DNA of 64,000 nucleotides. Source: Patescibacteria group bacterium (GTDB lineage Bacteria > Patescibacteriota > Patescibacteriia > UBA9570). The translations under genes were made by a program, and so were the position numbers. Position 1 is the first letter of the stretch, and every line of letters starts with the position of its first letter. This document shows positions 16,990 through 48,812 of this stretch, piece by piece. The notes beneath the pieces are model-generated. The model was not told the DNA's origin, ran no database searches, and saw nothing but the letters and a program-made list of their open reading frames with translations. The stretch spans positions 8,705 to 72,704 of the forward strand of contig JBAZWO010000003.1 of the NCBI GenBank assembly GCA_041660305.1, written 5' to 3'.

Positions 16990-17601
16990 ATGAACACACA
17001 ACAACTTCAAGCCACGCTCAGTGATATGGCCATGATTGAACAAGAACGAAAATGGAAACAATCTGTACCTAGTTGCTATGAACGTGAACACTATTTTGCA
17101 ACATTCCCAGAAGTGATTGAACTACTAAAGGATTTAATTAATATAGCTCAATCAGAACACACTACATTAGAAACCATTATTCGTCAGCAGTCAGTAGAAT
17201 TGGCAGCCGATAATTTAGATGATGTCTCGGAAGAATTTATAAAAACATGGTGGAAAGTTAAACGAGTAGCTCTCGATAGTAAAATTGCTCATTTAAAACA
17301 ACTGCTACCGATTACGCTACATAGTACTCAACCTAATTATCGTTTACCAAATGCGCTTATTGAACAAGCTAAAGCCATACCGATTCAAAATCTTATAACC
17401 GAACCAATTAAACAATATGGCGATAGATTAAAGAGCTGTTGCCCATTACATAACGAAAAAACCGCGTCATTCACTATCTATACATCTAAAAATACCTTCT
17501 ATTGCTTTGGTTGTAACAAGGGCGGTGATGTCATTGCTTTTGTACAGTTATTACACTCACTAACTTTTAGAGAAGCCGTGCAATATTTAATACCTAATTA
17601 A
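16990..17601 (+). CDS. CHC2 zinc-finger (DnaG-primase-type) protein
   Basis: C-terminal CCPLHNEKTASFTIY...FYCFGCNKGGDVIAFV is the CHC2 primase zinc-finger signature. Its start lies 1 nt after the previous stop. Confidence 0.7.
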   Translation: MNTQQLQATLSDMAMIEQERKWKQSVPSCYEREHYFATFPEVIELLKDLINIAQSEHTTLETIIRQQSVELAADNLDDVSEEFIKTWWKVKRVALDSKIAHLKQLLPITLHSTQPNYRLPNALIEQAKAIPIQNLITEPIKQYGDRLKSCCPLHNEKTASFTIYTSKNTFYCFGCNKGGDVIAFVQLLHSLTFREAVQYLIPN

Positions 17602-17624: not shown

Positions 17625-18704
17625 ATGACTATGACAAAAGATTTATCAACAATTCCACATGAAATAGAAGCTATTTTCAAAAAATCAGAACTACCTAAAG
17701 AGCACTGGCCAATGATACCTATGGCCAAACTTGCAAAAAGACCATATAAACCAATTACATTTCTAGTAGAACATTTAATACCAGAACATAATGTAGTTCT
17801 GCTCACAGGTAACTCTACAGTAGGAAAAACTTGGATAGCTTTAAGTATTGGGCTTACCGTTGCCGCAGGTACTCCTCTATTTGGACAATTCAACACACAG
17901 AAAACCGGTGTTTGGTACATAGATAAAGAAAATGGTGAAAATGAAATGATACGCCGTCTTCTACGCCTGCAAGGTCCAGCAGAAATTTGGCAAAATCTTC
18001 CATTTACATTAACAAACGCAGATGATATATCATTCACTCCTGAAACTGTTGTCCCGCTTATTCAACAAGCAAAGCACAATAACATTGGCCTTATTATTTT
18101 TGACTCATTCAGCTCTTTCAATGATGATGACGAAAATAAAACCACCGAGATGCGCCAATTAATGGATATGTTTAAACTAATTAGAAATTCAGGCATTAGT
18201 GTAATTATTTTGCATCATAATCGTAAGGGAGGTACTTATGGTGGACCTTCTACAGACAAGATACGTGGAGCTTCGAGTATTTACAATTCAGTAGATGCGC
18301 ATATTGAAGTGCAGAAAATTAAAGATAAAGAAGACCATATTAAAATAACTCAAACAAAATTACGTTGCACACGAGAGTTTAAACCATTTGAAGTGAGCTT
18401 TAACGAAAATACACATTCTAATAATCGTATAGACTTACAATTTCAAGGCTTAGCTCAGCCTAAATCGGAAAAAAAGAAAAAACGAGATATAGTGACAGAG
18501 GGTATACTTGATATTCTTGCTCAAGAGCCAGTGGAGTTACCGATACAGGCATTATTGGATAAATTACAAGAGGTAGATATTGAGTGTACTAAAACAACGT
18601 TAAAAAAATATCTCCAAGCAATGACTGGTAAACAAATATCAACACGTGAAGATGGCAAAAAAAAATATTTCTCTTTATTACCAGCTGAACAAATAGAAAC
18701 GTAA
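17625..18704 (+). CDS. RecA-fold AAA_25/RepA-like ATPase (replication or primase-associated helicase-like)
   Basis: Walker A LLTGNSTVGKTW, Walker B LIIFDSF, and the sensor region ILHHNRKGG. Confidence 0.7.
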   Translation: MTMTKDLSTIPHEIEAIFKKSELPKEHWPMIPMAKLAKRPYKPITFLVEHLIPEHNVVLLTGNSTVGKTWIALSIGLTVAAGTPLFGQFNTQKTGVWYIDKENGENEMIRRLLRLQGPAEIWQNLPFTLTNADDISFTPETVVPLIQQAKHNNIGLIIFDSFSSFNDDDENKTTEMRQLMDMFKLIRNSGISVIILHHNRKGGTYGGPSTDKIRGASSIYNSVDAHIEVQKIKDKEDHIKITQTKLRCTREFKPFEVSFNENTHSNNRIDLQFQGLAQPKSEKKKKRDIVTEGILDILAQEPVELPIQALLDKLQEVDIECTKTTLKKYLQAMTGKQISTREDGKKKYFSLLPAEQIET

Positions 18705-19039
18705 GATGTAAAAAAATTCTGGTATATAGTAATTTATTTTTTAACTCAGCTAAACAAGGTAATATGTTCAATTTAAATTCTTCTTTGTCTAGCTAATAAA
18801 GTAGTGAAAATAAAAAATACTATAGAAGAATAAATTTTTTTACTCACTGTTTTGCTGTGTGATAGCGTAGGTCAGTGCGTTCATCTATTGTCTAGCGTCA
18901 AAAAAATAGACCCCCACCCCCTCTATAATTTCAGGTAACTATAAACCAACAACATGTGCAAAGGCTAGGTCAAAACTAGTCTTTTGTTGTAGTAATGTTA
19001 TAATTTGTTCAAGATACTCACCCCAATGAAAATTCATAC

Positions 19040-19070
19040 AAAAAAGTCCTGTAGTTGCAGGGCTTTTTTT
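19040..19070. terminator. Bidirectional rho-independent terminator
   Basis: A6-AGTCCTG-TAGTTG-CAGGGCT-T7, immediately 3' of the minus-strand gene that ends at 19078. Confidence 0.6.
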
Positions 19071-19077
19071 GTATTTA

Positions 19078-19626
19078 TTAATCCAAACTCTCACACGCTA
19101 CATCATCATTATCAGAATCCAAACGGTGAATATCTTTACCTACTTCTGCCATACACGTATTGTACACACTTTGAGCCTCAGCTTGAGTAGAAAAATCTGC
19201 ACAGTTATAGGTATCAGAAGAGCAAATAATTGAGTTATTATTTTCAACTGGTACTGGTTGTTCTTCCTCTTCTTCAGTTACGACAATCGGGACTTCGAAT
19301 TGTTTATATTTAGACCATTTACCGCAATTACTCTCTGAGCAAGCTCGTACTTTAAATTTATACGTGCTACCTTGTTCTACTAAAGCGCTAATGTTTAATG
19401 ATGTAGTGGTTGTTTTTTTCCACTTTTTTACCAACTCTACGTCTTGAGTAATCAAACGAACTGTGTAGTAATCAGCATTAGTTACTACATCCCAAGTTAA
19501 CGTTAATGTTTCTCCAGAACCTTCTAATTGCAAGTTAGTTGGTTTGGCTAGTTTGTTAACCGCATAAACACTAGAAGCTATGCTTAATGCAGTTAATACA
19601 GCAAACAATAATAATAGTTTTTTCAT
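19078..19626 (-). CDS. Secreted FN3-like + Excalibur calcium-binding domain protein
   Basis: Signal peptide MKKLLLLFAVLTALSIASSVYA. FN3-like TLTWDVVTNADYYTV...YKFKVRACSESNCGKWSKY. C-terminal Excalibur motif CADF...RLDSDNDDVACE. Confidence 0.7.
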   Translation of the reverse strand: MKKLLLLFAVLTALSIASSVYAVNKLAKPTNLQLEGSGETLTLTWDVVTNADYYTVRLITQDVELVKKWKKTTTTSLNISALVEQGSTYKFKVRACSESNCGKWSKYKQFEVPIVVTEEEEEQPVPVENNNSIICSSDTYNCADFSTQAEAQSVYNTCMAEVGKDIHRLDSDNDDVACESLD

Positions 19627-21021: not shown

Positions 21022-21042
21022 AATCCCCGTCGCTCACCCCAA
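21022..21042 (+). repeat. Imperfect direct repeat of the tRNA-His 3' end (putative attR)
   Basis: AATCCCCGTCGCTCACCCCAA here versus AATCCCGTCGCTCACCCAA at 592-610. The shared exact core is CCCGTCGCTCACCC (14 nt), in the same orientation. Confidence 0.55.
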
Positions 21043-21135
21043 GGAAATTTAGACAAAAAAGTCCTTTACTCAAAGGGCTTTTTTGGTTCTAACTCATTGA
21101 CAACGACCGTTTTTTTTGATAGTATTTAGAATTAT

Positions 21136-21726: not shown

Positions 21727-21783
21727 TACAAAATAGTTCTAACGTCCTCCACTAGACGACCCCAAGAATAATTTAACCAAAAA

Positions 21784-21815
21784 AGTCCTATTTGTTCAGG
21801 ACTTTTTTGTTTTTT
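21784..21815. terminator. Rho-independent terminator (bidirectional)
   Basis: A-run, AGTCCT-ATTTGTTC-AGGACT, then a T-run. Confidence 0.55.
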
Positions 21816-21816
21816 A

Positions 21817-21960
21817 CTAATTCAAACTCTCACATGCTTCACCATCATTATCAGAATCCAAACGGTGAATATCTTTGCCAACTTCTGCTATGCAGGTATC
21901 ATATACTTTTTGTGCTTCGCTTTGAATCGATAAAATCAACAATTTTACTCGCACGCCCAT
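21817..21960 (-). pseudogene. Excalibur-domain gene remnant (duplicate of the 3' end of 19078-19626)
   Basis: Translates to ...SIQSEAQKVYDTCIAEVGKDIHRLDSDNDGEACESLN*. It is homologous at the nucleotide level to 19078-19188, lacks the signal peptide and FN3 part, and overlaps the 3' end of the MBL gene in another frame. Confidence 0.55.
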
Positions 21961-24289: not shown

Positions 24290-25054
24290 TTAACTTTCCC
24301 TTATTTCTTCAAACTCTAACCGTTGTAGTTGTTTGGTAACTACAACATCTTCTAATGGCTCTGAATAGTGAATCGCCGCTAATTCAGCCTGTTTATTCTG
24401 TTGCACGAATTGCCAATTATTCAAAATATTACGAGAACTAATCGTTTTGCGTACTTCTTTTTTTTGCACTAGCTCTATAACTTCATTTAGATTAACAGTT
24501 AGTTTTTGGCAAATCATCGTAAAATCATAAAAATCACGGTATCGTATCCGATCATTCATAGCACGAATTTTTTCAGCGACAATTTCACGAATATCCATCA
24601 CCCGCACCAATGTGTCTACACCGTAGACATTATGATACTTCAGCTCAAGTGGAGGTAAAACGACATTTTGTAAAAAATCAATTTCCATTTTCATGGAATT
24701 CGGCTGACCAAGCGGACCAGTAAATTGCAAACGCTCAATTTTAATTGTTGCGTTTGAAACATAGTCTTTTTTGACCGATAAAAAATCATAGTCTGTAAAT
24801 ATTGTTTTCACTTCATCTAAAGTAAGTGGTGCGGTATTACTTGAAAAATCTAAATCTTCAGAAAAACGTAACTGTGGTAAATGGGCATGATATAACGCCG
24901 TACCGCCTTTAAAAATCAGCTTATTTCGCAATGGTGAATCGTAAATAATTTTGGATACTAATGCTAAAAAATAATCTTTTTCAGCCACGGCTAAAGGATA
25001 CCGTAAACTAGTACGATTAATTGCTTCAAGTTCTCGACGACCGAGTAATTGCAT
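24290..25054 (-). CDS. AbiEii/AbiGii-family nucleotidyltransferase toxin (pair 1)
   Basis: Motifs FKGGTALYHAHL and RFSEDLDFSS. Confidence 0.8.
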   Translation of the reverse strand: MQLLGRRELEAINRTSLRYPLAVAEKDYFLALVSKIIYDSPLRNKLIFKGGTALYHAHLPQLRFSEDLDFSSNTAPLTLDEVKTIFTDYDFLSVKKDYVSNATIKIERLQFTGPLGQPNSMKMEIDFLQNVVLPPLELKYHNVYGVDTLVRVMDIREIVAEKIRAMNDRIRYRDFYDFTMICQKLTVNLNEVIELVQKKEVRKTISSRNILNNWQFVQQNKQAELAAIHYSEPLEDVVVTKQLQRLEFEEIRES

Positions 25055-25069
25055 AGTTAATAAAAATTA

Positions 25070-25846
25070 CTACTTAAAGTGTTGGTGATAATATAATCTC
25101 CATTTTGCACTAAACACGTTACTATCATTCGTCATTTTACTTACGCTACGATCATTTTGCACTAAAGCATGGAGCTGACTAGTATCATACTGAATTTGAT
25201 CCAATACAAAACCAATCATGCGTTGTACTGTAACAGTCTGCCCATGCAATAATTCGATTAACCGCTGGAAATTAATGTCCGAATAATACTCTCTGCATTT
25301 TTCTTGGACAATATCAATAGTATACAGTGAACGATGAAAATGTAACAAATCTAATAAAGCTTTCTCTGCTGTGGCAATTTTCACTAAGCGATTATCAAGT
25401 TTTTCTTCGATGAACCCATAAAATTGTTCCTGGATAGTATGCACGAAACGATACTGTATATCCTGAACCGTTTTTTCTGTCTCTTTTTTTAATGACACGG
25501 ACTGAATAATTTTTAACATCTGATCAAACATGCCGTGATATTGTAAAGCCGCCTCAAATGAAACGTAAGATTGGGGTACAATAATCTGCGCTACAGTGCA
25601 TGAAGACAACGTGACTGCACCTAAGGATTCCATTGAAGAAATGACATACGTACCTCGTTGCAATCGCACCAACCAGCCTATTGTAGTGAGCTTATTTACC
25701 CAGTTGCGAATGGACTGTCGATTATTGGTATAGTGATTAGCTATTTGAACAATCTGTTTGAACTGAACAACATCACCATGCTTAGCTAATAGGTTTTCTA
25801 GCAAATAATGGTCTTTTTGACTTAAAATGGTATTTTTTATAGTCAT
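25070..25846 (-). CDS. AbiEi-like antitoxin / transcriptional regulator (pair 1)
   Basis: N-terminal wHTH-like region ending in LQRGTYVIS. Located 15 nt upstream of the AbiEii gene. Confidence 0.65.
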   Translation of the reverse strand: MTIKNTILSQKDHYLLENLLAKHGDVVQFKQIVQIANHYTNNRQSIRNWVNKLTTIGWLVRLQRGTYVISSMESLGAVTLSSCTVAQIIVPQSYVSFEAALQYHGMFDQMLKIIQSVSLKKETEKTVQDIQYRFVHTIQEQFYGFIEEKLDNRLVKIATAEKALLDLLHFHRSLYTIDIVQEKCREYYSDINFQRLIELLHGQTVTVQRMIGFVLDQIQYDTSQLHALVQNDRSVSKMTNDSNVFSAKWRLYYHQHFK

Positions 25847-31820: not shown

Positions 31821-32993
31821 ATGATACTTTTAGCTGTTCCTATGTTACCACTAGAACAACAAATCGTTAATCTTATCCACCAACACCATAATATTTTGGT
31901 GTGTTTACCGGCCAAACCTTCTACCGATGCCATTGCTGCTGGTTTAGCTATGTACACTGTATTACAAAAACTCGGCAAAAATACTAATGTAGTAGCCGCT
32001 CAATTTACCTTACCAGATAGCCACAAATTTTTACCAAAAAGTTCTGCCATTAAACAAGATTTACAAGCTTTAAAAAAATTTATTATTACGCTGAATACGG
32101 AAAAAATAAAAGTATCTGATTTGCAATATGCTCAACAAGATAAACAATTACATATTTATGTAACGCCACAAAACGGTTCGTTTAATGTTCAAGATGTTAC
32201 CACTTCGGCCAGTAACTATGCTTATGATTTAATTATCACGATTGACACTAAAGAACTAGATGCTATTGGAACATTGTTTGAACAAAACGCTGATTTTTTC
32301 TATCACACTCCTATTATTAATATCGATCATCATCCTGGTAATGAACAATTTGGCCAAGTAAATTTAGTGAACATTACCGCTACCAGTGTATCCGAAATTA
32401 TATTTGAATTGATTCAACATTTAGATAACGGCCATTTATTAGATGAGTATATTGCTACAAATTTGCTAACCGGCATTATTTCTAAAACTAAATCATTCAA
32501 AACAGCTAGTGTAACACCGCGCTCACTAGCTATCGCTAGCCATTTAATTGCTTCCGGGGCTCGCCGTGAAGACATTGTTAAAAACTTGTATCAAACTAAA
32601 ACCATTAGCACACTACATCTATGGGGTCGTGCTCTAGCTCAATTGCAATCCGATACTAATCATCGGTTAGTGTGGTCTGTATTACATGAAGAAGATTTTT
32701 TACACACCAATACTAATACCTCTGCTTTGGAGGCCGTAATTGACGAATTGATTATTAATGCACCAGAAGCAGAAAATGTTTACATTATTTACGAACAACG
32801 TGATACCCAACAACAATTACATACCCACGCCATAATATATTTATCACACCAACGTAAAGCACTTAATTTACCGATAGAATGGCAAGTGAACAACACGGAA
32901 CATTTTAAATACATTGCATTTCCCAATCATATTACATTAGACGCCGCTCAAACCATGTTGCATCAGGCCCTGGAAAAACTTCTCCCCCTTTAG
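31821..32993 (+). CDS. DHH-family phosphoesterase (NrnA-like)
   Basis: DHH motif NIDHHPGN, and a DHHA1-like C-terminal half. Confidence 0.7.
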   Translation: MILLAVPMLPLEQQIVNLIHQHHNILVCLPAKPSTDAIAAGLAMYTVLQKLGKNTNVVAAQFTLPDSHKFLPKSSAIKQDLQALKKFIITLNTEKIKVSDLQYAQQDKQLHIYVTPQNGSFNVQDVTTSASNYAYDLIITIDTKELDAIGTLFEQNADFFYHTPIINIDHHPGNEQFGQVNLVNITATSVSEIIFELIQHLDNGHLLDEYIATNLLTGIISKTKSFKTASVTPRSLAIASHLIASGARREDIVKNLYQTKTISTLHLWGRALAQLQSDTNHRLVWSVLHEEDFLHTNTNTSALEAVIDELIINAPEAENVYIIYEQRDTQQQLHTHAIIYLSHQRKALNLPIEWQVNNTEHFKYIAFPNHITLDAAQTMLHQALEKLLPL

Positions 32994-33010
32994 GGGGTTG
33001 GGGGGCTGTG
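32982..33010 (+). repeat. G/C-rich hairpin + G-tail element (short copy)
   Basis: CTCCCCC-TTTA-GGGGG-TTGGGGGGCTGTG. The TAG stop of the DHH gene sits in the loop. Confidence 0.5.
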
Positions 33011-33025
33011 CTATACTATTAGGAT

Positions 33026-34768
33026 ATGGTGCAACGCATTGAAGATTTATTAGCTTTGAACAAACAAAGCCAGGCTACCAATACTCTACCGCCTACTACT
33101 AGCTCTACGGCCGATCCGGCGGCAAAATTGGCCAATAAGATGCATTTAATTGAATTAGAAAAGTTAGAAGAACTTACTCAAGCTAAAGCGGTTGAGTTTA
33201 GTTTGGAATATATTAATCTACAAGGCTTTCCAGTGGGGCCAGAAATACTATCTTTGATTACCGAGGAACAAGCTAGGCGTATTCGCACCGTAGTGTTTTT
33301 TAAATTAGATAATCAGATTCGTTTAGCTACATGTTTGCCAGATCATCCGGAAATTTACGATATTATTGCTCGTTTACAACGCGAATTTCCTGGCACAAAT
33401 ATTGCTATTTACCTAACTTCGGAGCACAGCATGAACGAGGTATTAAAACTATATAAAAATATTGCCCATATTAGAACTACTACCACTAACGTGGCTCTTA
33501 CTAAAGCAGAACTAGATTATTTTCAGCAAGCCATTCATAGTTTTGCTGATATGGAAAAAATGTTAGCCACTGCCAATATGACACAGGCCTTTGCCATGAT
33601 GGTAGCTGAAGCTATGAACGTAAATTCTTCCGATATTCATGTGGAAGCCGGTGAACATCATATTATCGTCCGTTACCGTGTAGACGGTTTATTACAAGTG
33701 GCGGCTAAAATACCAGCTAGCATTTGGCCTCATTTAATTACTAGAATAAAAACAATTGCTGGTTTAAAAATAAACGTAGATAGTATTCCCCAAGATGGCC
33801 GTATTACTATTGTCATGGATCAAGATAAACTAGACATTCGTGTGTCTACTATCCCTACTACTTGGGGTGAATCAGTGGTAATGCGTTTGTTACGCTCTAA
33901 TTCTATAAGTTTATCTTTTGAACAGCTTGGTTTGCGGTCAGCGGCTTTTAAGCGCTTAAAACACGAGCTAGATAAACCCCAGGGCATGATTATTACCACT
34001 GGTCCAACCGGTTCTGGTAAAACTACTTCTTTGTATGCCATGTTAAACACACTCAATCAGCCCGATCGAAAAATTATTACCCTGGAAAACCCTATTGAAT
34101 ATCGTTTGCCTGGTATCGACCAATCGCAAATTGAGCACGCTAAAGGCTACACGTTTTCCAAAGGCTTGCGCGCCATTTTACGGCAAGATCCCAATATTAT
34201 CATGGTGGGTGAAATCCGCGATTTAGAAACAGCCGAAACCGCTATCCAGGCCGCGCTTACTGGCCACTTACTACTTTCTACTATTCATACTAACGATGCC
34301 GCTGGCGCTATTCCTCGCTTTTTATCCATGGGCGCGCAACCGTTTTTATTAGCTCCCGCCATGAACGCCATTGTTGGTCAGCGTTTGGTACGTAAACTAT
34401 GTGATTTTTGCAAAACTGAAATTACGTTAGATCTAGAAACACTGGATCGAGTAAAAAACTTGGTAAAAAACATTCCGGAAAATTCCGGTGAAATTATCCC
34501 CGATCCAAACACCTTAAAATTTTATGAAGGCAAGGGTTGTGATCAGTGCCATAAGTTAGGCTACAAAGGCCGCATTGGCATTTATGAAGTGTTTACCAAA
34601 ACCCCGGAAATTGAAGCTATCACCTTGGCCGGCAATGTTTCCGAATATCAAATGCGCGAAGTTACCCATCGTTTAGGCATGCTCACCATGGCCCAAGATG
34701 GTATCTTGAAAGCGCTAGCGGGAGTTACGTCGGTGGCTGAAGTGATGCGGGTGGCGGTAATAGATTAG
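33026..34768 (+). CDS. Type IV pilus / type II secretion ATPase (PilB/GspE family)
   Basis: Walker A GPTGSGKTT, Walker B IIMVGEIRD, His box, and the tetracysteine CDFC...CDQC. Confidence 0.9.
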   Translation: MVQRIEDLLALNKQSQATNTLPPTTSSTADPAAKLANKMHLIELEKLEELTQAKAVEFSLEYINLQGFPVGPEILSLITEEQARRIRTVVFFKLDNQIRLATCLPDHPEIYDIIARLQREFPGTNIAIYLTSEHSMNEVLKLYKNIAHIRTTTTNVALTKAELDYFQQAIHSFADMEKMLATANMTQAFAMMVAEAMNVNSSDIHVEAGEHHIIVRYRVDGLLQVAAKIPASIWPHLITRIKTIAGLKINVDSIPQDGRITIVMDQDKLDIRVSTIPTTWGESVVMRLLRSNSISLSFEQLGLRSAAFKRLKHELDKPQGMIITTGPTGSGKTTSLYAMLNTLNQPDRKIITLENPIEYRLPGIDQSQIEHAKGYTFSKGLRAILRQDPNIIMVGEIRDLETAETAIQAALTGHLLLSTIHTNDAAGAIPRFLSMGAQPFLLAPAMNAIVGQRLVRKLCDFCKTEITLDLETLDRVKNLVKNIPENSGEIIPDPNTLKFYEGKGCDQCHKLGYKGRIGIYEVFTKTPEIEAITLAGNVSEYQMREVTHRLGMLTMAQDGILKALAGVTSVAEVMRVAVID

Positions 34769-34806
34769 ACCCCTCCTCCAACTCCTCCCCTACAAGGGAG
34801 GAGAGC
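34769..34806 (-). repeat. G/C-rich hairpin + tail element abutting the TAG stop of the pilB-like gene
   Basis: TAG|ACCCCTCCTCCAA-CTCCTCCC-CTACAA-GGGAGGAG. Inverted orientation relative to the copies at 35204, 36006, 37834 and 39933. Confidence 0.6.
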
Positions 34807-34823
34807 AATTAAAATTTTACTAT

Positions 34824-35192
34824 ATGTTATCTCCCTCAAAGAAAAAACCAGCAGTTGTATTACAGCAAAAACTTCATTACATTTCAAAACAACTAAGAAA
34901 TAAACCTACTGCTGCTGAAAATTTGCTCTGGCAAAAATTAAAAGGCAAACAACTTTGTGGTAAAAAATTTAGAAGACAATATCCTTTATATAGTTATATT
35001 GCCGATTTTTATTGCCATGATAAAAAACTTCTTATTGAGGTAGATGGAGAGATTCATAAACAACAACAAACCAAAGATACCAACCGTGATCAAATGTTAC
35101 ATGAATATGGTTATTACACATTACGTTTTACTAATGCGGATATATTAAATAATATCAATTCAGTTTTAACAATTATTACCAAAAATTTATAA
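34824..35192 (+). CDS. DUF559 (Vsr-like endonuclease fold) domain protein
   Basis: LWQKLKGKQL...KFRRQYPLYSYIADFYCHDKKLLIEVDGEIH is the characteristic DUF559 pattern. Confidence 0.8.
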   Translation: MLSPSKKKPAVVLQQKLHYISKQLRNKPTAAENLLWQKLKGKQLCGKKFRRQYPLYSYIADFYCHDKKLLIEVDGEIHKQQQTKDTNRDQMLHEYGYYTLRFTNADILNNINSVLTIITKNL

Positions 35193-35203
35193 TAGATATT
35201 TAC

Positions 35204-35245
35204 TCCCCTCCCTCTTGCAGGAGGGAGGGGCTGGGGGAGAGAGGT
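35204..35245 (+). repeat. G/C-rich hairpin + tail element abutting the TAG stop of valS
   Basis: CCCCTCCCTC-TTGCAG-GAGGGAGGGG-CTGGGGGAGAGAGGT|CTA. Confidence 0.6.
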
Positions 35246-37807
35246 CTAGAGTTCTTGTAATGATTTTTCTAGCTTTTCTAAAATTGCTTTTTTGTCAGCT
35301 AATTTTTTCTGTTCCACTTCAATAATTCTAGCTGGCGCTTTACTGATAAATTCTGGGGTATTCAATTTCTGATTTAAACTGACGACATATTTTTTTAATT
35401 CAACAATTTCTTTTTTTAGTTGCGCCTGATATTTTGGTACGTCAATCACACTTTGTAAATCCAGTGTAAATTCATAAGCATCATTAATTAATTGTACTTT
35501 ACCCATCCCACTCCCCTCACTAATTACTACTTTCGTTAAGTGTTCAATAATATCCTTAGTACCCGAAACTGGTTTTTTAGTAAACAATGTAATTTTTGTG
35601 CTGTAAGCAATATTGTATTTTGCTCGTAAATCGCGAATTTGGGTAACAATATCTTGGATATCAGCAAATTGTTTTTCTATGGTAGGATTAATTTTAGTCG
35701 CATCTGCTTGTGGCCAGGTTTCTATCATTAACAATTTACCTGGATGTAACTCGCTCCATAATACTTCAGTCACAAATGGTATAAACGGATGTAATAATTT
35801 TAGGGTGGTTTCTAATACTTGTTTGGTTAACACTGGATTCGGTTGAAATTTGGTAATTTCAATATACCAATCAGCAAAATCGTGCCACAAAAATTCGTAA
35901 ATCTTTTCGGCCGCTAAACTATATTGATAATGTTCAAAATAATTATTTATTTCTTGAATTAAGCGATTTAATTTGGATTCAATCCAGCTATCCGCTATGG
36001 CTTCACCTCCCTCCCCTTTGAGGGGAGGGATTGAGGGAGAGGTAGTTACATATCTAGCCACATTCCATACTTTGTTGACAAAGTTTCTAGAATCCTCCAC
36101 TTTTTCTTCATAAAATTTCGAATCATTACCTGGTGTAATACCCTTTAATAAACTTAACCGTAACGCATCAGCACCATATTGCTTAATTACATCCAATGGA
36201 TTAATGCCATTGCCTAATGACTTGGAAAATTTGCGTCCTTGTTTGTCACGTAACATGCCATGAATATAAACCTCTTTAAATGGAATACTATCTAAAGCAT
36301 AGGTGGTCATTAATATCATTCTGGCCATCCAGAAAAAAATAATTTCATGACCCATTTGCATCCAAGAGATCGGATGAAATTTTTTTAAATCAGCGGTTTG
36401 CTTTGGCCAGCCTAAGGTAGAAAACGTCCATGTGCCAGACGAAAACCAGGTATCAAGCGTATCTTCATCTTGTTGCCAACCCTGTTCTAATGGAGCTTTA
36501 ATTCCAACATAAACTTCTTTGTCTTTATACCAGGCTGGAATTCGATGTCCCCACCAAATTTGCCGAGAAATACACCAATCACGCAAATTTTCTATCCAGC
36601 GTAAATAAGTTTTTTCAAAGCGCTCTGGAGTAATTTTAATTTTTGCAGCCGCCTCGCGCATTAAATCCTTCAAGGTTTTATTTTTGCCAGGGATAATCTT
36701 ATTTACATTTACAAACCATTGCTCTTTTGGAATTACTTCTACCACATCACTAAAACGATCCGATGTGCCAACACTGTGTACTAATTCTTCTTCTTTAATA
36801 ATAAGATTATTATCTTTTAACCAGGCTACTAATTTTTCTCGAGCGGCTAATGCTGTTAACCCTTGGTAAGCTTTACCAGCTTGTTCGGTCATACAGCCAT
36901 CTTCGCTAATTACTTGAATCAAACCAATGTCTGGATGTTTTAGATACATATCATAATCAGCCATGCTGTGGGCTGGAGTTACTCCCACGGCCCCGGTGCC
37001 GTAATTCATATCCACGGTATCATCCGCAATGATTTTAATAACAAGTGGTTTAGCGGCGCCAATATTGATAGTGTATTCTTTGCCAATATATTGCTGGTAA
37101 CGTTCATCGTTTGGATGTACCGCTACGGCCGTATCGCCTAATTTAGTTTCCGGACGCGTGGTAGCAATGGCAATCGGAAAATCTTTGCTATATTTAAAGG
37201 TATATAATTTAGTAGTTTGTTCCACGTATACTAACTCATCATCTGAACAAGTAGATTGTCCTTTTACCGACCAGTTAATCACACGGTAACCTTTGTAAAC
37301 CAAACCATCTCGATACATGCGCACAAATAATTCATTCACCGCTCGAGACCGCTGCTCATCAAAAGTATAAGCTAATCTAGACCAATCACAACTCGTGCCA
37401 AGTTTTTTTATCTGATTTAAAATAGTTGATTTCGATTGTTCAGCAAAATCACGAATAATACTTACTAATTTTTCTCGGCCATATTCTGTGCGAGGATGTT
37501 TAATGCCCTGGGCTTGTAGATTTTTTTCTACGCGAGCTTGAGTAGCTACAGCAGAGTGATCGGTACCAGGCAACAATAAGGCTTTTTTGCCCAACATGCG
37601 CTGATACCGAATTTGGGTATCCATTAAGGCATTTTCTAAAGCGTGTCCTAAATGTAACACGCCAGTTACGTTTGGCGGTGGAAATAATAATGAAAACGGT
37701 TCACCGTTACCAGGTAAATTATCCGGATTAAAATAACCTGATGCTTCCCATTGCTTGTAAATCTTATCCTCATAATCTTGCGCGTTATACGCTTTTGGTA
37801 GGTTCAT
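35246..37807 (-). CDS. valS: Valine--tRNA ligase
   Basis: HIGH motif (VLHLGHAL), KMSKS variant (KFSKSLGN), class Ia editing-domain length, and a C-terminal coiled coil. Confidence 0.95.
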   Translation of the reverse strand: MNLPKAYNAQDYEDKIYKQWEASGYFNPDNLPGNGEPFSLLFPPPNVTGVLHLGHALENALMDTQIRYQRMLGKKALLLPGTDHSAVATQARVEKNLQAQGIKHPRTEYGREKLVSIIRDFAEQSKSTILNQIKKLGTSCDWSRLAYTFDEQRSRAVNELFVRMYRDGLVYKGYRVINWSVKGQSTCSDDELVYVEQTTKLYTFKYSKDFPIAIATTRPETKLGDTAVAVHPNDERYQQYIGKEYTINIGAAKPLVIKIIADDTVDMNYGTGAVGVTPAHSMADYDMYLKHPDIGLIQVISEDGCMTEQAGKAYQGLTALAAREKLVAWLKDNNLIIKEEELVHSVGTSDRFSDVVEVIPKEQWFVNVNKIIPGKNKTLKDLMREAAAKIKITPERFEKTYLRWIENLRDWCISRQIWWGHRIPAWYKDKEVYVGIKAPLEQGWQQDEDTLDTWFSSGTWTFSTLGWPKQTADLKKFHPISWMQMGHEIIFFWMARMILMTTYALDSIPFKEVYIHGMLRDKQGRKFSKSLGNGINPLDVIKQYGADALRLSLLKGITPGNDSKFYEEKVEDSRNFVNKVWNVARYVTTSPSIPPLKGEGGEAIADSWIESKLNRLIQEINNYFEHYQYSLAAEKIYEFLWHDFADWYIEITKFQPNPVLTKQVLETTLKLLHPFIPFVTEVLWSELHPGKLLMIETWPQADATKINPTIEKQFADIQDIVTQIRDLRAKYNIAYSTKITLFTKKPVSGTKDIIEHLTKVVISEGSGMGKVQLINDAYEFTLDLQSVIDVPKYQAQLKKEIVELKKYVVSLNQKLNTPEFISKAPARIIEVEQKKLADKKAILEKLEKSLQEL
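36006..36044 (+). repeat. G/C-rich hairpin + tail element inserted in frame inside valS
   Basis: CCTCCCTCCCC-TTTGA-GGGGAGGGA-TTGAGGGAGAGGTAG, which encodes ...TSPSIPPLKGEGGE... in ValRS. Confidence 0.6.
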
Positions 37808-37828
37808 AATTTATATAATATCATTTTT

Positions 37829-37911
37829 TTATTCCCCCTTCTCCTCAGAGGAGAAGGGGGTTAGGGGGATGAGGTAGGTTGTTTAAAGGAGAGGGGGTCG
37901 GGGGGTGAGGT
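37829..37911 (+). repeat. G/C-rich hairpin + tail element plus a second partial copy, abutting the TAG stop of the HD gene
   Basis: TTATTCCCCCTTCTCCTCAGAGGAGAAGGGGGTTAGGGGGATGAGGT matches 39928-39974 except for one loop base. It is followed by AGGAGAGGGGGTCGGGGGGTGAGGT|CTA. Confidence 0.65.
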
Positions 37912-38952
37912 CTAAATTATCTTTATATAATGTCCCGCCTGCCGCTTGGCTCGATATTGTTCATTTAAATCATTAAATTCTACATCCAAATGTGATAAAC
38001 GGACTAATTCTCCATCAATTAACACAAATGGATCCACAATTCTAATTTTAGTTTTAACATGAAAATCATAATTTACCAAGTCTTCTTTTACCTTAATAGA
38101 CCTTACTAAGGCTAAATTTTTACTAATTAACGGATGCTTAGCTTGCGCTAGTTTTTCGTACACTACTTCGTCTACCGAAAACAAATCTTTGAACGTAATA
38201 ATATTTTCAAACAAAGCCGTTTTAATGGCTTCAGCAAATAAATGATAAAGAGCCGCCTGCATGGGGTGCCCCCATAAGCGCTGATCACCTAAGCGGTAGA
38301 CATCGGCAAACTGGCGCGCAATATTCTGGTGCTCAAACGCAATGGTGTGCTCAAACCGAACCATGTCATCTAACATGGGTTTTACGTCGTTAATATCTAA
38401 AATCCGATCGGTCACTAAATCTCGAAAACAATAATCAATTCTGTCCATACACAAATCTGGCAAATCCCGTTCTAATAACGAAAATCTAGCTTTATCAAAT
38501 ATAGTATCCAATGATAAATCATGTTTTTTTATAATCGCCGGAATAGTTGAATTCATAATTACGGCTTTGTGAAACTCTTCATGAAACGTGCCAGCTTCGG
38601 CACCGCCAAATACAAAATCAATCACATGGGAAAACGCGGTATGTGGTACATCATGCAACATACCTGCAATCTGTTCTTCTAGTGTGGCGTTGAATCGGCG
38701 TAATAATAAATACACCCCTACACAGTGCTCATAACGGCTAGTGGTAAGATGCGCAAACCGATAAAAACTAGCCCCATACTGATTCACTTTTTTCAGCCGC
38801 TGCATCGCTTCAGAAGCTAGTAATTCTTGTACCACTGGCTCTGTGATAGTTGTTTCGCTATAGATTTTATCTTTATATTGATATTGCATATGTTTTATTA
38901 CCCTATTGTAAACTAAACACCGCTCTTGTCCAGTATCAGAAACCATTGACAT
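37912..38952 (-). CDS. HD-domain metal-dependent phosphohydrolase
   Basis: H...HD motif (YEHCVGVY...GMLHDVPHTAFSH). The true start may be the ATG at 38889. Confidence 0.75.
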   Translation of the reverse strand: MSMVSDTGQERCLVYNRVIKHMQYQYKDKIYSETTITEPVVQELLASEAMQRLKKVNQYGASFYRFAHLTTSRYEHCVGVYLLLRRFNATLEEQIAGMLHDVPHTAFSHVIDFVFGGAEAGTFHEEFHKAVIMNSTIPAIIKKHDLSLDTIFDKARFSLLERDLPDLCMDRIDYCFRDLVTDRILDINDVKPMLDDMVRFEHTIAFEHQNIARQFADVYRLGDQRLWGHPMQAALYHLFAEAIKTALFENIITFKDLFSVDEVVYEKLAQAKHPLISKNLALVRSIKVKEDLVNYDFHVKTKIRIVDPFVLIDGELVRLSHLDVEFNDLNEQYRAKRQAGHYIKII

Positions 38953-38982
38953 TACTTATAGGTCTGCTAATATAATATTATA

Positions 38983-39039
38983 CTTTGACTCCAAATATGG
39001 AGTTCCGAGGCCCTCCAAAAGAGGGCCGTTATTTTTTTT
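38983..39039 (+). ncRNA. Candidate ~55-nt small RNA convergent with the PemK/MazF-like gene
   Basis: TTGACA (38946-38951), a 19-nt spacer and TATAAT (38971-38976). Then two hairpins (ACTCC-AAATAT-GGAGT and GGCCCTC-CAAAA-GAGGGCC), followed by GTTA and T8. Both flanking genes are on the other strand. Confidence 0.3.
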
Positions 39040-39439
39040 AAACAAGTTTACGAAACATGTTTTGAATATTTTTGTAGTCTTCAGCTTCTAATTTACCTAA
39101 ACGACGTAATAGCCTTTTAGCACTAATTACTCTCATTTGAGACAAATTGATTGTATATTGTAAATGATTACGCTGAAATATGTATCTATAATTACCCGGT
39201 TTAATTTTACTAGACGTTGGTACCGCTAAAAACATATCTGCATTAAATTTTTTCAAAATTAATACCGGACGTTCAAAATGAAAATTTTTACCATTTTCTT
39301 CACTGCCGATATTTTGTCCAAGACTAACCCACCAAATTTGACCTTCCTTAAAATAAAAAGTCTGTGATTTTTTACTCAAGTGAATATCTATTTTTAGTTT
39401 TGACCAAGCGTTAAATTCTTGAATTATTTTTAATAACAT
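39038..39439 (-). CDS. PemK/MazF-family toxin-like protein
   Basis: GQIWWVSLGQNIGSEENGKNFHFERPVLILKKF...AVPTSSK...LSQMRVISAKRL follows the PemK/MazF pattern. I prefer the ATG at 39439. Confidence 0.5.
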   Translation of the reverse strand: MLLKIIQEFNAWSKLKIDIHLSKKSQTFYFKEGQIWWVSLGQNIGSEENGKNFHFERPVLILKKFNADMFLAVPTSSKIKPGNYRYIFQRNHLQYTINLSQMRVISAKRLLRRLGKLEAEDYKNIQNMFRKLV

Positions 39440-39498
39440 AAAAAGCGTTCCCAAAAATTGGTGAGCGCTCAATTAAAGTATATGTTATCAAAATTTTA

Positions 39499-39912
39499 TT
39501 AATATTGCAATTTTAACAATGCCAGCCCAATTTCTGACTCCATTGCTCGATGTAACTCTGTAAACGGTCTAATCACTAATTCAATAGTCGGATTAGCAAC
39601 CAGCTTATTACAGTGTCCACCAAACACCTGGTATTGATGATTAGCCAGCGTAACATGAATGTGTAATTTTTCTACGGAAATGTTGCCTTGAATACTGGTA
39701 ACTTCGTAAAACTGATCGTTAAATAATTTATTAGTATACTGTTTGCTTTCTAAATTAAATGAAGCCAGTTCAATTTCTTGTGAACCGCCAATTCCATTTA
39801 TCCAACCACCTTTAATGTTCTGCTCCTGGAAAAATTTTGTTAACGTAGTGATTAATTCTTCACCTGACATCAGGCGAATAATGTAAGTGTCATTGTTTTT
39901 TGTATATTGCAT
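39499..39912 (-). CDS. PPC (DUF296) domain protein
   Basis: IIRLMSGEELITTLTKF...GIGGSQEIELASF...HIHVTLA...GGHC is typical of PPC/DUF296. Confidence 0.6.
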   Translation of the reverse strand: MQYTKNNDTYIIRLMSGEELITTLTKFFQEQNIKGGWINGIGGSQEIELASFNLESKQYTNKLFNDQFYEVTSIQGNISVEKLHIHVTLANHQYQVFGGHCNKLVANPTIELVIRPFTELHRAMESEIGLALLKLQY

Positions 39913-39927
39913 ATATTTAATTATTTA

Positions 39928-39974
39928 TTATTCCCCCTTCTCCTCTGAGGAGAAGGGGGTTAGGGGGATGAGGT
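39928..39974 (+). repeat. G/C-rich hairpin + tail element abutting the TAG stop of tsaD
   Basis: TTATTCCCCCTTCTCCTCTGAGGAGAAGGGGGTTAGGGGGATGAGGT|CTA. Confidence 0.65.
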
Positions 39975-40961
39975 CTATGTTAATTCCCAATTCGGATCGG
40001 CCTGCACAGAAAACAAATCAGCCGGCTCGTTATGTAATTTACACGCCGCGGCAATCATGGCGGCATTATCGGTACAATATTCTAACGCTGGAATACATAA
40101 TGTTACAGGCGTAGAGACGCATTGCAATGCGTCTCTACATGTTTGGCGTAATAACGGGTTAGCCGCTACTCCACCGCCCACTAATAACGTTTTTACCTGA
40201 TACTGCTTAATTGCTTTCATGGTTTTTTTTACTAATACATCTACAATGGCTTGTTGTAAGCTGGCGCAAATATCATTTAAATTTGCATTTGGATTATCGC
40301 GTTTAAAATACAATACCGCCGTTTTTAATCCGGAAAATGAAAACGAATAATCACCGCTATCCAGCATGGGTCTAGGAAAATGAAACGCTGCCGCATTGCC
40401 TTGTGTTGCCAATTTACTAATTTCTGGCCCACCTGGATAAGCCAACCCTAAAATGCGCGCCGTTTTATCAAAGCATTCTCCGGCCGCGTCATCTCGTGTT
40501 TTTCCTATTAACTCATAAGTAGCCGGCTTTGGCATGAACAACAATTCGGTATGGCCACCGGATACCACCAGCGCTATCGCCGGATACTCGATATTAGGCT
40601 GCGTAATAAAATTAGCGGCAATATGGCCTTCAATATGATTAATGGAAAATAATGGTACATGCCAACTGTAACTTAGCGTACGCGCCGTTTCTACGCCTAC
40701 CATTAATGAGGTAATTAAGCCTGGCCCAGTAGTCACGGCAATTCTATCTAGTTGCTGACCGGTTAAATTAGTTTGTTTTAAAATTTGTTCAATTAGTGGC
40801 ATAATAACCTGCACGTGTTCACGTGCCGCCACTTCGGGCACTACTCCACCGGTTAATTTATGCACGTCAATTTGCGAAGCCGTTAAATAGCTAATCTTAT
40901 CATCCTGCATGACCGCTACGCTGGTCTCGTCACACGAAGTTTCTATTGCTAAAATATTCAT
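39975..40961 (-). CDS. tsaD: tRNA N6-adenosine threonylcarbamoyltransferase
   Basis: MNILAIETSCDETSVAV, HIEGHI, SGGHTEL and CTDNAAMIA motifs of the Kae1/TsaD family. Confidence 0.92.
   Translation of the reverse strand: MNILAIETSCDETSVAVMQDDKISYLTASQIDVHKLTGGVVPEVAAREHVQVIMPLIEQILKQTNLTGQQLDRIAVTTGPGLITSLMVGVETARTLSYSWHVPLFSINHIEGHIAANFITQPNIEYPAIALVVSGGHTELLFMPKPATYELIGKTRDDAAGECFDKTARILGLAYPGGPEISKLATQGNAAAFHFPRPMLDSGDYSFSFSGLKTAVLYFKRDNPNANLNDICASLQQAIVDVLVKKTMKAIKQYQVKTLLVGGGVAANPLLRQTCRDALQCVSTPVTLCIPALEYCTDNAAMIAAACKLHNEPADLFSVQADPNWELT
40111..40138. repeat. 28-nt perfect palindrome inside tsaD
   Basis: GTAGAGACGCATTG|CAATGCGTCTCTAC. It is translated in frame as ...CRDALQCVST... Confidence 0.7.
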
Positions 40962-42156: not shown

Positions 42157-42843
42157 ATGTTGAATCTATTAACCATAACCAATCTGACTAGGGAAATTAA
42201 TATAGCTCCTTTGCATATTATTAGAGAACATTTAGAAATGGAAACACTGTATTATCTCAGCCAATCCCCATTGGCCAAACAAATACTTTTTTATGGTGGC
42301 ACGGCTATTCGCCTAGCCCATCATGGCTTACGTTTTTCAGAAGATTTAGATTTTCTTTTTAGCACACCTCCAACCGCCCAGACGGCTCAATTGTTACGGC
42401 GGGTCTTAAAAAATGTTGTTCAGAATAATTCCGGAGTAACTCTTGAAGAAGTAATTAATAAGCGGTGGACATTATTTGGTTTACTGCATATTACCCATGA
42501 ATTATTAAAACATCCAATTAGAATTAAAATTGAAATCTGTAAAAAAAAAGAAGCCGCGGAAGTAAAAAATTTTTTACTTACCTCAAAAACAAATAACAAA
42601 GAAATTATTTTTAAAACCGCTACTGTAGAAGCCCTGTGTTTATTAAAAGAAAAAGCCATGTTTAATAGAGCGGTACCACGTGATTGGTTTGACTATTGGT
42701 ATCTTTGTCAAAAATTACAGCGCAATAAAACTATTAAATTGCCCTTTCCTTTTCCAAAGTTAGCCTTTGCTAATGATTTAAAACGTTGGCTACCGCGCCA
42801 AACTTGGCCAGTAATACCAACTATTATTGCCTTTTATGAATAA
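42157..42843 (+). CDS. AbiEii-like nucleotidyltransferase (pair 2)
   Basis: FYGGTAIRLAHHGLRFSEDLDFLF. Confidence 0.7.
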   Translation: MLNLLTITNLTREINIAPLHIIREHLEMETLYYLSQSPLAKQILFYGGTAIRLAHHGLRFSEDLDFLFSTPPTAQTAQLLRRVLKNVVQNNSGVTLEEVINKRWTLFGLLHITHELLKHPIRIKIEICKKKEAAEVKNFLLTSKTNNKEIIFKTATVEALCLLKEKAMFNRAVPRDWFDYWYLCQKLQRNKTIKLPFPFPKLAFANDLKRWLPRQTWPVIPTIIAFYE

Positions 42844-48206: not shown

Positions 48207-48280
48207 GGCCCGTTCGTCTAATGGTTAGGACATCAGGTTTTTCCGCCAGAGGCGGATCCGCCTCTGGCGGACAACCTGTA
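48207..48280 (+). pseudogene. 5' fragment of tRNA-Glu (acceptor 5' strand through the anticodon stem) with a 30-nt perfect palindrome inside the anticodon
   Basis: 48207-48241 and 48272-48280 are identical to 48551-48585 and 48586-48594 of the intact tRNA-Glu. They are interrupted by TCCGCCAGAGGCGGA|TCCGCCTCTGGCGGA (48242-48271). No T-arm follows. Confidence 0.6.
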
Positions 48281-48287
48281 TATATGT

Positions 48288-48542
48288 ATGCATTATCTCT
48301 ACATTTTACAAAGCTTGCGTGATAATGGTTATTACATTGGCATTACGGAAAACATTGAACAGCGTTTAAAAGCGCATAATGCTGGTAAAACAAAATCACT
48401 TCTTGCTCGCTTGCCAGTTGTCTTGAAACATATTGAAAAATATGATACTACAACTGAAGCGAGAAAAAGAGAAATTCAGCTTAAAAAGAATTATCAATTG
48501 CGTAAGCAATTATTAACTCAATTAGGCTTTGTGCTAAAATAA
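48288..48542 (+). CDS. Small GIY-YIG nuclease-family protein
   Basis: YLYILQSLRDNGYYIGITENIEQRLKAHN...R..E..LK is the GIY-YIG core (GIY ... YIG ... R ... E). Confidence 0.85.
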   Translation: MHYLYILQSLRDNGYYIGITENIEQRLKAHNAGKTKSLLARLPVVLKHIEKYDTTTEARKREIQLKKNYQLRKQLLTQLGFVLK

Positions 48543-48550
48543 CTTTATAT

Positions 48551-48622
48551 GGCCCGTTCGTCTAATGGTTAGGACATCAGGTTTTCAACCTGTAAACGGG
48601 GGTTCAATTCCCCCACGGGCTA
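48551..48622 (+). tRNA. tRNA-Glu (anticodon TTC), intact
   Basis: Acceptor GGCCCGT/ACGGGCT, D-arm GTCT-AATGGTTA-GGAC, anticodon stem TCAGG/CCTGT with loop TTTTCAA, T-arm GGGGG-TTCAATT-CCCCC. Confidence 0.9.
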
Positions 48623-48656
48623 CTAATAATTACAGTGTTCTAAAATGTCCACAGTT

Positions 48657-48741
48657 GGGGTTCTCCGCCTGAGGCGTCAGCCTGAGGCTGATCCGCCTTA
48701 GGGGGAGATCCGCCATTCGGCGGAAATTCCCCCACGGGCTA
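48657..48741 (+). pseudogene. 3' fragment of tRNA-Glu (T-arm + acceptor 3' strand) with a ~61-nt insertion of TCCGCC...GGCGGA-type hairpin modules in the T-loop
   Basis: GGGGTTC + [48664-48724 insert] + AATTCCCCCACGGGCTA, versus GGGGGTTCAATTCCCCCACGGGCTA in the intact gene. Confidence 0.55.
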
Positions 48742-48812
48742 CTGATATACTTTTAGTTAAAAAACACGGGTGCATTTTTGGCAAAACAGTTTTATCTTGT
48801 ATACTTAATAAC

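Follow-up and report, generated by a model that had tools for sequence, protein, structure and literature searches.

Hairpin-plus-tail repeats at stop codons of a Patescibacteria genome belong to a multi-phylum family associated with DUF559 nuclease genes

Introduction

In a 64-kb stretch of DNA from a Patescibacteria group bacterium (GenBank assembly GCA_041660305.1, contig JBAZWO010000003.1, positions 8,705 to 72,704; hereafter the window, to which all counts for the source genome refer), short G/C-rich hairpins followed by a G-rich tail stand out against AT-rich surroundings (about 36% G+C), and several of them end exactly on the TAG stop codon of a gene. What are these elements, and why do they sit on stop codons, always with the same end facing the gene? 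A reading of the letters and open reading frames (ORFs) of the window, the sequence-only reading, had offered two answers: elements that go into TAG stops or supply such a stop themselves, or a lineage-specific 3ʹ-end signal for termination or stability. Here, we describe how the copies compare with syntenic relatives, how far the family extends, and how it is associated with genes of the DUF559 family. On balance, we favor the reading that the elements are mobile palindromic repeats resembling the repetitive extragenic palindromic (REP) sequences and their paired form, REPIN, that they insert at TA dinucleotides in a way that restores the stop codon, and that DUF559 is their partner enzyme.

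Results

A family of hairpin-plus-tail elements

Copies were called in four ways: by reading the sequence from 32.8 to 40.2 kb, by an unconstrained scan for GC hairpins, by a purpose-built strict detector, and by a covariance model (CM) run without filters over all 64 kb, the copy at 36004 having belonged to the training set of the model. The four approaches concurred on five full copies (34766–34807 on the minus strand, and 35201–35246, 36004–36046, 37832–37876, and 39931–39975 on the plus strand), all with CM E-values of 5e-5 or lower. Together with two to three partial copies, they confirm that the G/C-rich hairpin-plus-tail family recognized by the sequence-only reading is real. The significant copies all lay within 32.98–39.98 kb, and the rest of the window contained no further CM match better than E = 2; under uniform placement, finding five full copies inside 5.2 kb of 64 kb has a probability of about 2e-4.

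A full element has a 5ʹ arm of pyrimidines only and a 3ʹ arm of purines only, joined by a loop of 3–6 nt and followed by a G-rich tail of 13–16 nt that ends in GAGGTC, which reads GACCTC on the other strand. The stems are 8–12 bp long, and the predicted RNA folding energies of the hairpins range from -15.6 to -23.7 kcal/mol. As a plain MAFFT alignment left the elements out of register, covariation was read from a subset of equal length, in which compensatory changes occurred at 5 of 10 base pairs; these changes are not independent, the detector having required pairing.

The tail end directly abuts the TAG stops of four genes, exact to the base, as had been claimed. The gene of a PilB-type ATPase (pilB, 33026–34768, plus strand) ends in a TAG (34766–34768) composed of TA (34766–34767) and the terminal G (34768) of copy #2, which lies on the minus strand (34768–34807, CM match 34766–34807; terminus GACCCC, hairpin 34782–34803; 28 bits, E = 5e-5). 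For the minus-strand valS gene (35246–37807), encoding valyl-tRNA synthetase (ValRS), the TAG (35246–35248) is formed by the terminal C (35246) of copy #3 and TA (35247–35248); this plus-strand copy (35203–35246, CM match 35201–35246; 39.3 bits, E = 8.6e-8) has its hairpin at 35205–35230 and a tail ending in GAGAGGTC. The same construction was found at the minus-strand gene of an HD protein (37912–38952, TAG 37912–37914), where the terminal C (37912) belongs to copy #5b, and at the minus-strand tsaD gene (39975–40961, TAG 39975–39977), where the terminal C (39975) belongs to copy #6 (39931–39975, plus strand; 32.1 bits, E = 5e-6), a copy with TA on both sides. Copy #5b (37886–37912, plus strand) lacks the 5ʹ arm, comprises the 3ʹ arm and tail only (GGAGAGGGGG-TCGGGGGGTGAGGTC), and is weak by CM (E = 8.7). 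Copy #5 (37832–37876, plus strand; 29.7 bits, E = 2e-5) lies between the HD gene and the valS start, with TA on its hairpin side (TA/TTCCCCC). It is separated by 2.1 kb from copy #6, and the two, counted from 37829 and 39928, differ by one loop base alone over 47 nt, just as had been reported, with 49 of 51 positions matching.

The remaining copies stand in other relations to genes. A DHH gene (31821–32993, plus strand) reads into the 5ʹ arm of copy #1 (32980–33013, plus strand; 16.1 bits, E = 0.042), a degenerate copy with a 5-bp hairpin (CCCCC-TTTA-GGGGG) and a TTGGGGGG tail, and its TAG (32991–32993) sits in the hairpin loop, as previously noticed; the orthologue in the relative L005 stops at the same codon position, but with TAA. 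A remnant at 18908–18925 (minus strand; CM E = 2) comprises the tail only (TA/GACCCCCACCCCCTC/TA) and is intergenic, away from gene ends. Copy #4 (36004–36046, plus strand), which was matched by the detector, lies within the valS reading frame, where its translation (...SPSIPPLKGEGGE...) falls in the loop that separates the catalytic from the anticodon-binding domain of ValRS. This loop was hypervariable across 40 ValRS sequences and shows no net lengthening, and an element-like hairpin occupies the corresponding place in valS of the relative L004 (CM E = 0.028). Rickettsia palindromic elements (RPE) are a known case of a palindromic repeat tolerated in frame in an essential gene. Copy #4 in its variable loop resembles them, although its sequence is unrelated, it is the one in-gene copy, and the loop is not lengthened. 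RPE are also mentioned in an account of REP sequences (PMC3733652).

The elements are absent from orthologous sites in relatives

Two syntenic relatives, L004 and L005, were recovered via ValRS homologues, both 67% identical to the ValRS of the window. Between tsaD and the gene of a PCC-domain protein (39499–39912, minus strand), L004 has an element-free spacer of 16 nt, and the window is 45 nt longer there. Between the HD gene and valS, L004 has a spacer of 5 nt and the genes of L005 overlap, both without an element, compared to about 104 additional nt in the window. As the orthologous gene ends lack them (in L004 at both sites, in L005 at HD–valS), the elements are insertions into this Patescibacteria genome. 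The pilB gene of L005 likewise has no element and ends with TAA at the same codon.

The stops of pilB, valS, and the HD gene occupy the same codon positions in the window and in the relatives, indicating that the elements sit on the native stop and that the genes were not truncated; tsaD of the window is two codons shorter than that of L004. Of the two answers that had been offered, insertion at a TAG, or with a TAG of its own, is therefore essentially right, since copies are absent in relatives and the G of the TAG is the element terminus. Contigs also break at elements: an independent assembly of the same organism, L002, ends at 39977, and L004 ends inside an element, which is expected of multi-copy repeats.

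At the end of valS, both the window and L004 have an element right after the TAG. When 35246–35360 was compared with L004 12480–12589, the last 36 or so ValRS residues were near-identical, whereas the preceding 80 residues were 38% identical (67% overall). We considered a conversion tract at this 3ʹ end and set it aside, as the nucleotide identity of about 0.78–0.85 is not clearly anomalous and the segment may be a conserved arm.

The family is shared by at least five phyla

An exact 20-nt tail, GGGGGTTAGGGGGATGAGGT, was present in 31 loci of species-representative genomes, with about one match expected by chance. The hosts are Bacteroidota, Spirochaetota, Chloroflexota, Patescibacteria (Peribacteria and Kerfeldbacteria), and one Gammaproteobacterium. 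In about 28 of the 31 loci, the same TT-CCCCCTTCTCC / GGAGAAGGGGG hairpin stands upstream of the tail, with freely differing loops, and hundreds of related copies were found in other loci. The family is thus common to at least five phyla and not lineage-specific. Stop abutment is uncommon in the other phyla, where a co-directional gene often lies 3ʹ of the tail. The 20-mer had zero matches among 2.9 million viral contigs, giving no support for carriage by phages.

At the gathering threshold, Rfam recognized only three tRNAs in the window, and at an E-value threshold the region yielded only sub-threshold hairpin look-alikes. Among known RNAs, the whalefall-1 consensus (RF01762) shares a CUCUCC-loop-GGAGAG hairpin and a ...AGGGUGAGG stretch. 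Its best score was 19 bits (36007–36044) against a gathering value of 37, its model has 22 extra positions between hairpin and tail, and it gave zero matches at E ≤ 0.01 in 17 element-rich loci; we rejected it as an identification and keep it as a lead only.

The tail was also observed on its own, in a Draconibacterium orientale metagenome-assembled genome (L006, 1–110), where at least three tandem copies, repeating every 31 nt (GGGGGTTAGGGGGATGAGGTACCCTGGGACA) and without a hairpin, stand at the contig end.

Copies are flanked by TA in this genome

In other phyla, inverted pairs of elements (doublets) share the termini GACCTC...GAGGTC. Because this terminus, GACC(TC), is conserved, the junction TAG/ACC is better parsed as TA/GACC, the TA being flanking DNA. 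In the source genome and a contig from the same sample (L117), TA flanks 10 of 12 outer ends, among them every one of the six outside stop codons (the hairpin sides of copies #5 and #6, both sides of the 18908 remnant, and both ends of the L117 doublet), for which p is about 1e-6 at a TA dinucleotide frequency of 0.097. At the L117 doublet, TAGACC comes after the TGA stop of the gene itself, and elsewhere the terminus can complete a TGA (T/GAcc), as seen in L118 for ligA and in L022 for a gene of 639 codons. TAG accounts for 20 of 60 stop codons in the window; given this usage, four TAGs at four abutted stops have a p of about 0.01, so that the exclusive use of TAG is by itself only modestly significant. 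Taken together, the clustering of the full copies, the TAG at all four abutted stops, and the base-exact fit of each junction exclude chance.

Copies #2 and #3 are the left and right ends of one unit that encloses a DUF559 gene and reads GAT-TA-[GACC...GGTC]-TA-GAGTTC. Removal of the bracketed unit and one TA leaves GATTAGAGTTC, in which pilB ends with TAG, valS ends with CTC-TAA, and the two stops share the TA; judged by its sequence, this is a plausible empty site of the unit.

These flanks suggest how the elements may have arrived. Insertion would take place at TA dinucleotides in this genome, possibly duplicating the TA. Where the TA is part of a TAA or TAG stop and the element lies with its tail end toward the gene, the terminal G of the element would rebuild TAG and the insertion would be harmless, whereas the opposite orientation would give TA+T (Tyr) and read-through into the element. 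With spacers of 5–16 nt that also hold the start signals of the next gene, tail-first insertions on a stop would be those likely to survive selection. Stop rebuilding by tail-first insertion, combined with almost no intergenic space, would explain the orientation rule on either strand.

TA is also the target of several bacterial miniature inverted-repeat transposable elements (MITEs), such as Correia/NEMIS and ERIC, and of IS630/Tc1-type transposons. The elements could accordingly be MITE-like and depend for their movement on a trans-acting transposase from another part of the genome (for example, an IS630/Tc1-type DDE enzyme that targets TA), with DUF559 as a passenger or as an independent homing-type gene that prefers palindromes. 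Beyond the TA on both sides in this genome, the small size, the insertion near or in gene ends, and the inverted doublet termini speak for this, as do the many copies that stand alone and distant from DUF559. A nuclease, moreover, cannot integrate DNA by itself, and a small nuclease of another type, GIY-YIG, adjoins an element in L019 and also accompanies another hairpin family at a tRNA-Glu gene of the window. However, single copies have no terminal inverted repeats, TA flanks were not seen in other phyla, and among the approximately 55 ORFs of the window neither a DDE nor a Y1 (RAYT/IS200) transposase was found, the rightmost genes being ordinary housekeeping genes. A transposase acting in trans would also leave unexplained the enrichment around DUF559 genes, the outward orientation seen there across phyla, and the matched ends of each unit, which are described below. 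We regard it as rather unlikely.

The copies do not behave as a 3ʹ-end signal

The second answer that had been offered, and a rival to insertion, is that the hairpins are functional 3ʹ-end signals, such as an exonuclease barrier or a factor-dependent terminator, selected just after stops. The hairpins are stable, and all four mRNAs that end at an abutted stop would read stop, a C-rich stretch of 13–15 nt, and hairpin. REPs of E. coli are known to stabilize upstream mRNA, which fits this view. Against it, no U-tract is present on either strand, the hairpins being followed by AAUAAUAA, AGUAAAUA, or UUAGGGGG, and a terminator scan that recognized a canonical site at 39009 called none of copies #2–#6, so that we rejected intrinsic terminators. 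Two sites lie 18–24 nt upstream of the co-directional PCC and valS genes, one copy is inside valS, and the orthologous gene ends of the relatives do without elements. The rarity of stop abutment in other phyla, with co-directional genes often downstream, is equally at odds with such a role. Stem mismatches were T-G in 21 cases versus C-A in 16, giving no strand bias and no sign of RNA selection on one transcript. A 3ʹ-end function is therefore improbable as the reason for the elements, and its lineage-specific form is not supported, the family occurring in at least five phyla and U-tract terminators being present elsewhere in the window.

Those terminators include a family of canonical two-way U-tract terminators (AAAAAAGTCCT...AGGGCTTTTTT) in a 176-nt repeat (78% identity) at 19020–19195, 21037–21087, and 21759–21934, indicating that the genome uses ordinary intrinsic terminators.

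Elements are concentrated around DUF559 genes

What the sequence-only reading had overlooked, while recording the two copies themselves, is a 122-aa ORF between copies #2 and #3 (34824–35192, plus strand). It is a DUF559 nuclease gene (Pfam PF04480, E = 1.5e-34), bracketed by an inverted pair with tails pointing outward, and this is the typical arrangement of the family. DUF559 is a very large family of unknown function that extends from E. coli and Neisseria to cyanobacteria and the candidate phyla radiation (CPR). The pair around the DUF559 gene is the only inverted pair of the window; the L117 contig has a gene-less doublet.

A DUF559 profile retrieved 80 metagenome loci, 78 of them non-redundant in the CM count. 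With the strict detector, 62 elements lay within about 200 nt of the gene in the 80 loci (1.78 per kb) versus 18 farther away (0.082 per kb), and with the CM, the densities near and far were 2.06 versus 0.072 per kb. The elements are hence enriched 22- to 28-fold within about 200–250 nt of DUF559 genes, mostly as inverted pairs. By CM, 36 of the 78 loci had an element, 19 of these on both sides, with 53 tails directed outward and 23 inward. The two ends of one unit have a matching stem and loop, which vary between loci. L076 and L105 share a 453-nt DUF559 unit at 91% identity; the match ends at the outer hairpin edges, beyond which the flanks are unalignable.

The association was also visible in proteins, as about 35 of the 120 best DUF559 homologues, from cyanobacteria, Bacteroidota, Chloroflexota, Proteobacteria, and CPR, carry N- or C-terminal extensions (PPSPLAGRGLGGGV, SSPSPRGEGAGG) that are translated elements. 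In the Fe-S cluster operon on a plasmid of Sphingomonas parapaucimobilis (NZ_CP155753.1, L128, 509–992), the space from sufB to sufC is taken up by a DUF559 gene together with an element on either side of it; here the tails point inward, the upstream tail standing directly before the DUF559 ATG. Synechocystis sp. B12 and Azospirillum brasilense show the same arrangement of DUF559 and elements.

Starting from the elements, the picture is more sparing: among the 31 loci found by the element, a DUF559 gene is directly adjacent in 3 and occurs elsewhere in none. Neighboring copies without a gene between them are arranged as 17 tail-outward inverted pairs versus 2 direct pairs in related loci, where no gene other than DUF559 was found recurrently between inverted copies.

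One might suppose that the hairpins are integral control parts of a DUF559 cassette, the G-rich tail serving as Shine-Dalgarno sequence and the 3ʹ hairpin as stabilizer or insulator of a toxic nuclease gene, with solo copies as leftovers. In L009, L076/L105, L118, and L128, the GAGGT tail indeed stands 4–8 nt upstream of the DUF559 ATG, with a reversed copy overlapping the stop. In the window and at most loci, however, the tails point away from the gene, the near-identical solo copies #5 and #6 differ in subtype from the pair around the DUF559 gene of the window, and several phyla repeatedly show inverted doublets that have a conserved composition but enclose no gene. We consider this explanation very improbable.

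DUF559 is enriched (odds ratio 14) among predicted targets of programmed inversion (PMC9881135). A gene bracketed by inverted repeats would fit this signal, and the association described here may explain why DUF559 was flagged. Our literature search found no description of a DUF559-repeat association, which does not prove that none exists.

Two further DUF559 loci deserve mention. In Neisseria gonorrhoeae (NZ_CP119142.1, L127, 1060–1506), a 280-nt repeat unit lies a few hundred bases downstream of a DUF559 gene of the 3HRL family; it contains two elements of this type, one reading CTCTCTCCC-TGT-GGGAGAGAG before its tail and the other CCCTCCCCC-ACA-GGGGAGGG after a C-rich tail, with DNA uptake sequences interleaved. 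In L117 (89–886), a second DUF559 gene from the same sample (85% identical protein) neighbors a fragmentary Transposase_mut (IS256-like) gene and has a left element that is truncated at the terminus.

The DUF559 protein is most likely an active nuclease

The DUF559 protein of the window has every invariant residue of the family alignment (E32, W36, D61, E72, D74, H78, D85, and others). A profile of 19 DUF559 proteins matched PDB 3HRL (1e-31) and the catalytic domain of the homing endonuclease I-Bth0305I (3R3P, labeled a mobile intron protein, 1.3e-4), and Vsr, DUF559, and these structures are grouped in one classification (PMC3424549). Judged by its residues and profile matches, the protein is in all likelihood a small, active nuclease of Vsr/homing-endonuclease type.

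In addition to the match of the catalytic domain, the small, selfish-looking nuclease gene inserted among conserved neighbors (pilB and valS in the window, and in Sphingomonas sufB and sufC) resembles Vsr-like (EDxHD) homing endonucleases such as I-Bth0305I. It differs from them in that DUF559 is outside any intron or intein and is bracketed by hairpin repeats; a search for a matched empty allele of the DUF559 unit found none.

Discussion

The elements behave as REP/REPIN sequences, but the gene that they flank encodes a different kind of enzyme, and they are without the stem tag or a REP-associated tyrosine transposase (RAYT). What they share with the REP/REPIN-RAYT system are short GC-rich palindromes with a conserved single-stranded extension, many copies that are mostly extragenic and follow gene ends, inverted doublets, and a small gene between two inverted copies. 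REP families are usually species-specific, whereas the same sequence variant of the present element occurs in several phyla. The 5ʹ arm is strictly pyrimidine and the 3ʹ arm strictly purine, a tail of 13–15 nt intervenes between stem and TAG, and the conserved terminus GACC(TC) is at the tail end. The gene flanked is that of a DUF559 PD-(D/E)xK nuclease, and no Y1_Tnp was found among the window ORFs scanned. GTAG REP termini often donate TAG stops and REPs also occur within ORFs, which extends the likeness to the termini and the in-ORF copy seen here; by contrast, the GTAG/GTGG or CGTC tag that defines REPs is missing at the stem, the base before TAG being T, C, T, or A (PMC3733652).

By analogy, we infer that DUF559 would be to these repeats what RAYT is to REPINs. 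A small nuclease resembling Vsr or a homing endonuclease would cut or nick the DNA at the palindrome and leave the copying to host repair or recombination; such repair-dependent copying might be started either by a dimeric restriction-like nuclease that recognizes the perfect palindrome or by a nickase specific for the structure of the extruded hairpin. Any effects of the hairpins on mRNA stability would be secondary. We put forward more tentatively, as a possibility that we would not call probable, that DUF559 proteins in general are the dedicated nucleases of an unrecognised, multi-phylum, REPIN-like replicator, helping to recognize and propagate both single copies and inverted doublets, which would be a second partnership of repeat and enzyme, independent of the Y1 HUH enzymes.

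Several points weigh against mobile repeats partnered by DUF559, and keep our preference for this reading a guarded one. A hydrolytic PD-(D/E)xK nuclease alone cannot integrate DNA. At about half of the DUF559 loci, no element was detected, and most elements, in 28 of the 31 loci, are far from DUF559. Several DUF559 loci are syntenic across diverged genomes, which points to long vertical residence rather than frequent movement. Vertical, single-copy behavior is known for RAYTs, and the synteny of DUF559 resembles RAYTs more than an active transposon. With regard to insertion, the absence of TA flanks in other phyla is joined by the absence of a target duplication or shared flank around 12 DUF559 units and 17 doublets of the metagenome and related loci; the empty sites come from relatives no closer than the 67% identity of valS, and the stop of the HD gene is already TAG in both L004 and L005, so that an element was not needed to supply a stop there.

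The consistent physical pairing of DUF559 genes with one repeat family suggests a concrete function for the family, that of a repeat-associated nuclease comparable to RAYT and REPIN, with a defined DNA substrate. If true, it would explain why DUF559 and neighboring ORFs are lengthened by PSPL...GEGxGG peptides, which would be annotation artefacts, as well as the contig breaks in CPR bins and the stop codons rebuilt by an inserted element. It also illustrates a way for selfish DNA to survive between genes that are only a few bases apart: it lands on a stop codon and restores it.

Other features of the window

A second module of a small nuclease and GC hairpins is located at 48207–48750, at the tRNA-Glu gene (48551–48623). 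The tRNA gene is preceded by a partial 5ʹ copy of itself, the anticodon loop of which is broken by a perfect 13-bp hairpin (TCCGCCAGAGGCG-GATC-CGCCTCTGGCGGA, 48242–48271), and between this hairpin and the tRNA lies an 84-aa GIY-YIG nuclease gene (48288–48542, Pfam E = 1.2e-15). On the 3ʹ side follows a partial copy of the tRNA 3ʹ end, also broken by TCCGCC...GGCGGA hairpins. Within tsaD, a perfect 28-bp palindrome, GTAGAGACGCATTGCAATGCGTCTCTAC (40111–40138; GTAG...CTAC ends), present as a single copy in the window, coincides with an insertion of 4+2 residues relative to the L004 orthologue. A MazF-like toxin gene lies between the HD and PCC genes.

Positions 1–25900 look like an integrated mobile island beside tRNA-Met and tRNA-His (430–608). 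It contains genes for a large serine recombinase (512–2131), an Mrr-type restriction nuclease (10718–12298), an HNH protein (12393–13406), a DnaG-type zinc-ribbon protein (16990–17601), an AAA_25 ATPase (17625–18704), and an AbiE toxin-antitoxin pair (24290–25846); further AbiEii genes occur outside the island, at 42157 and 46213.

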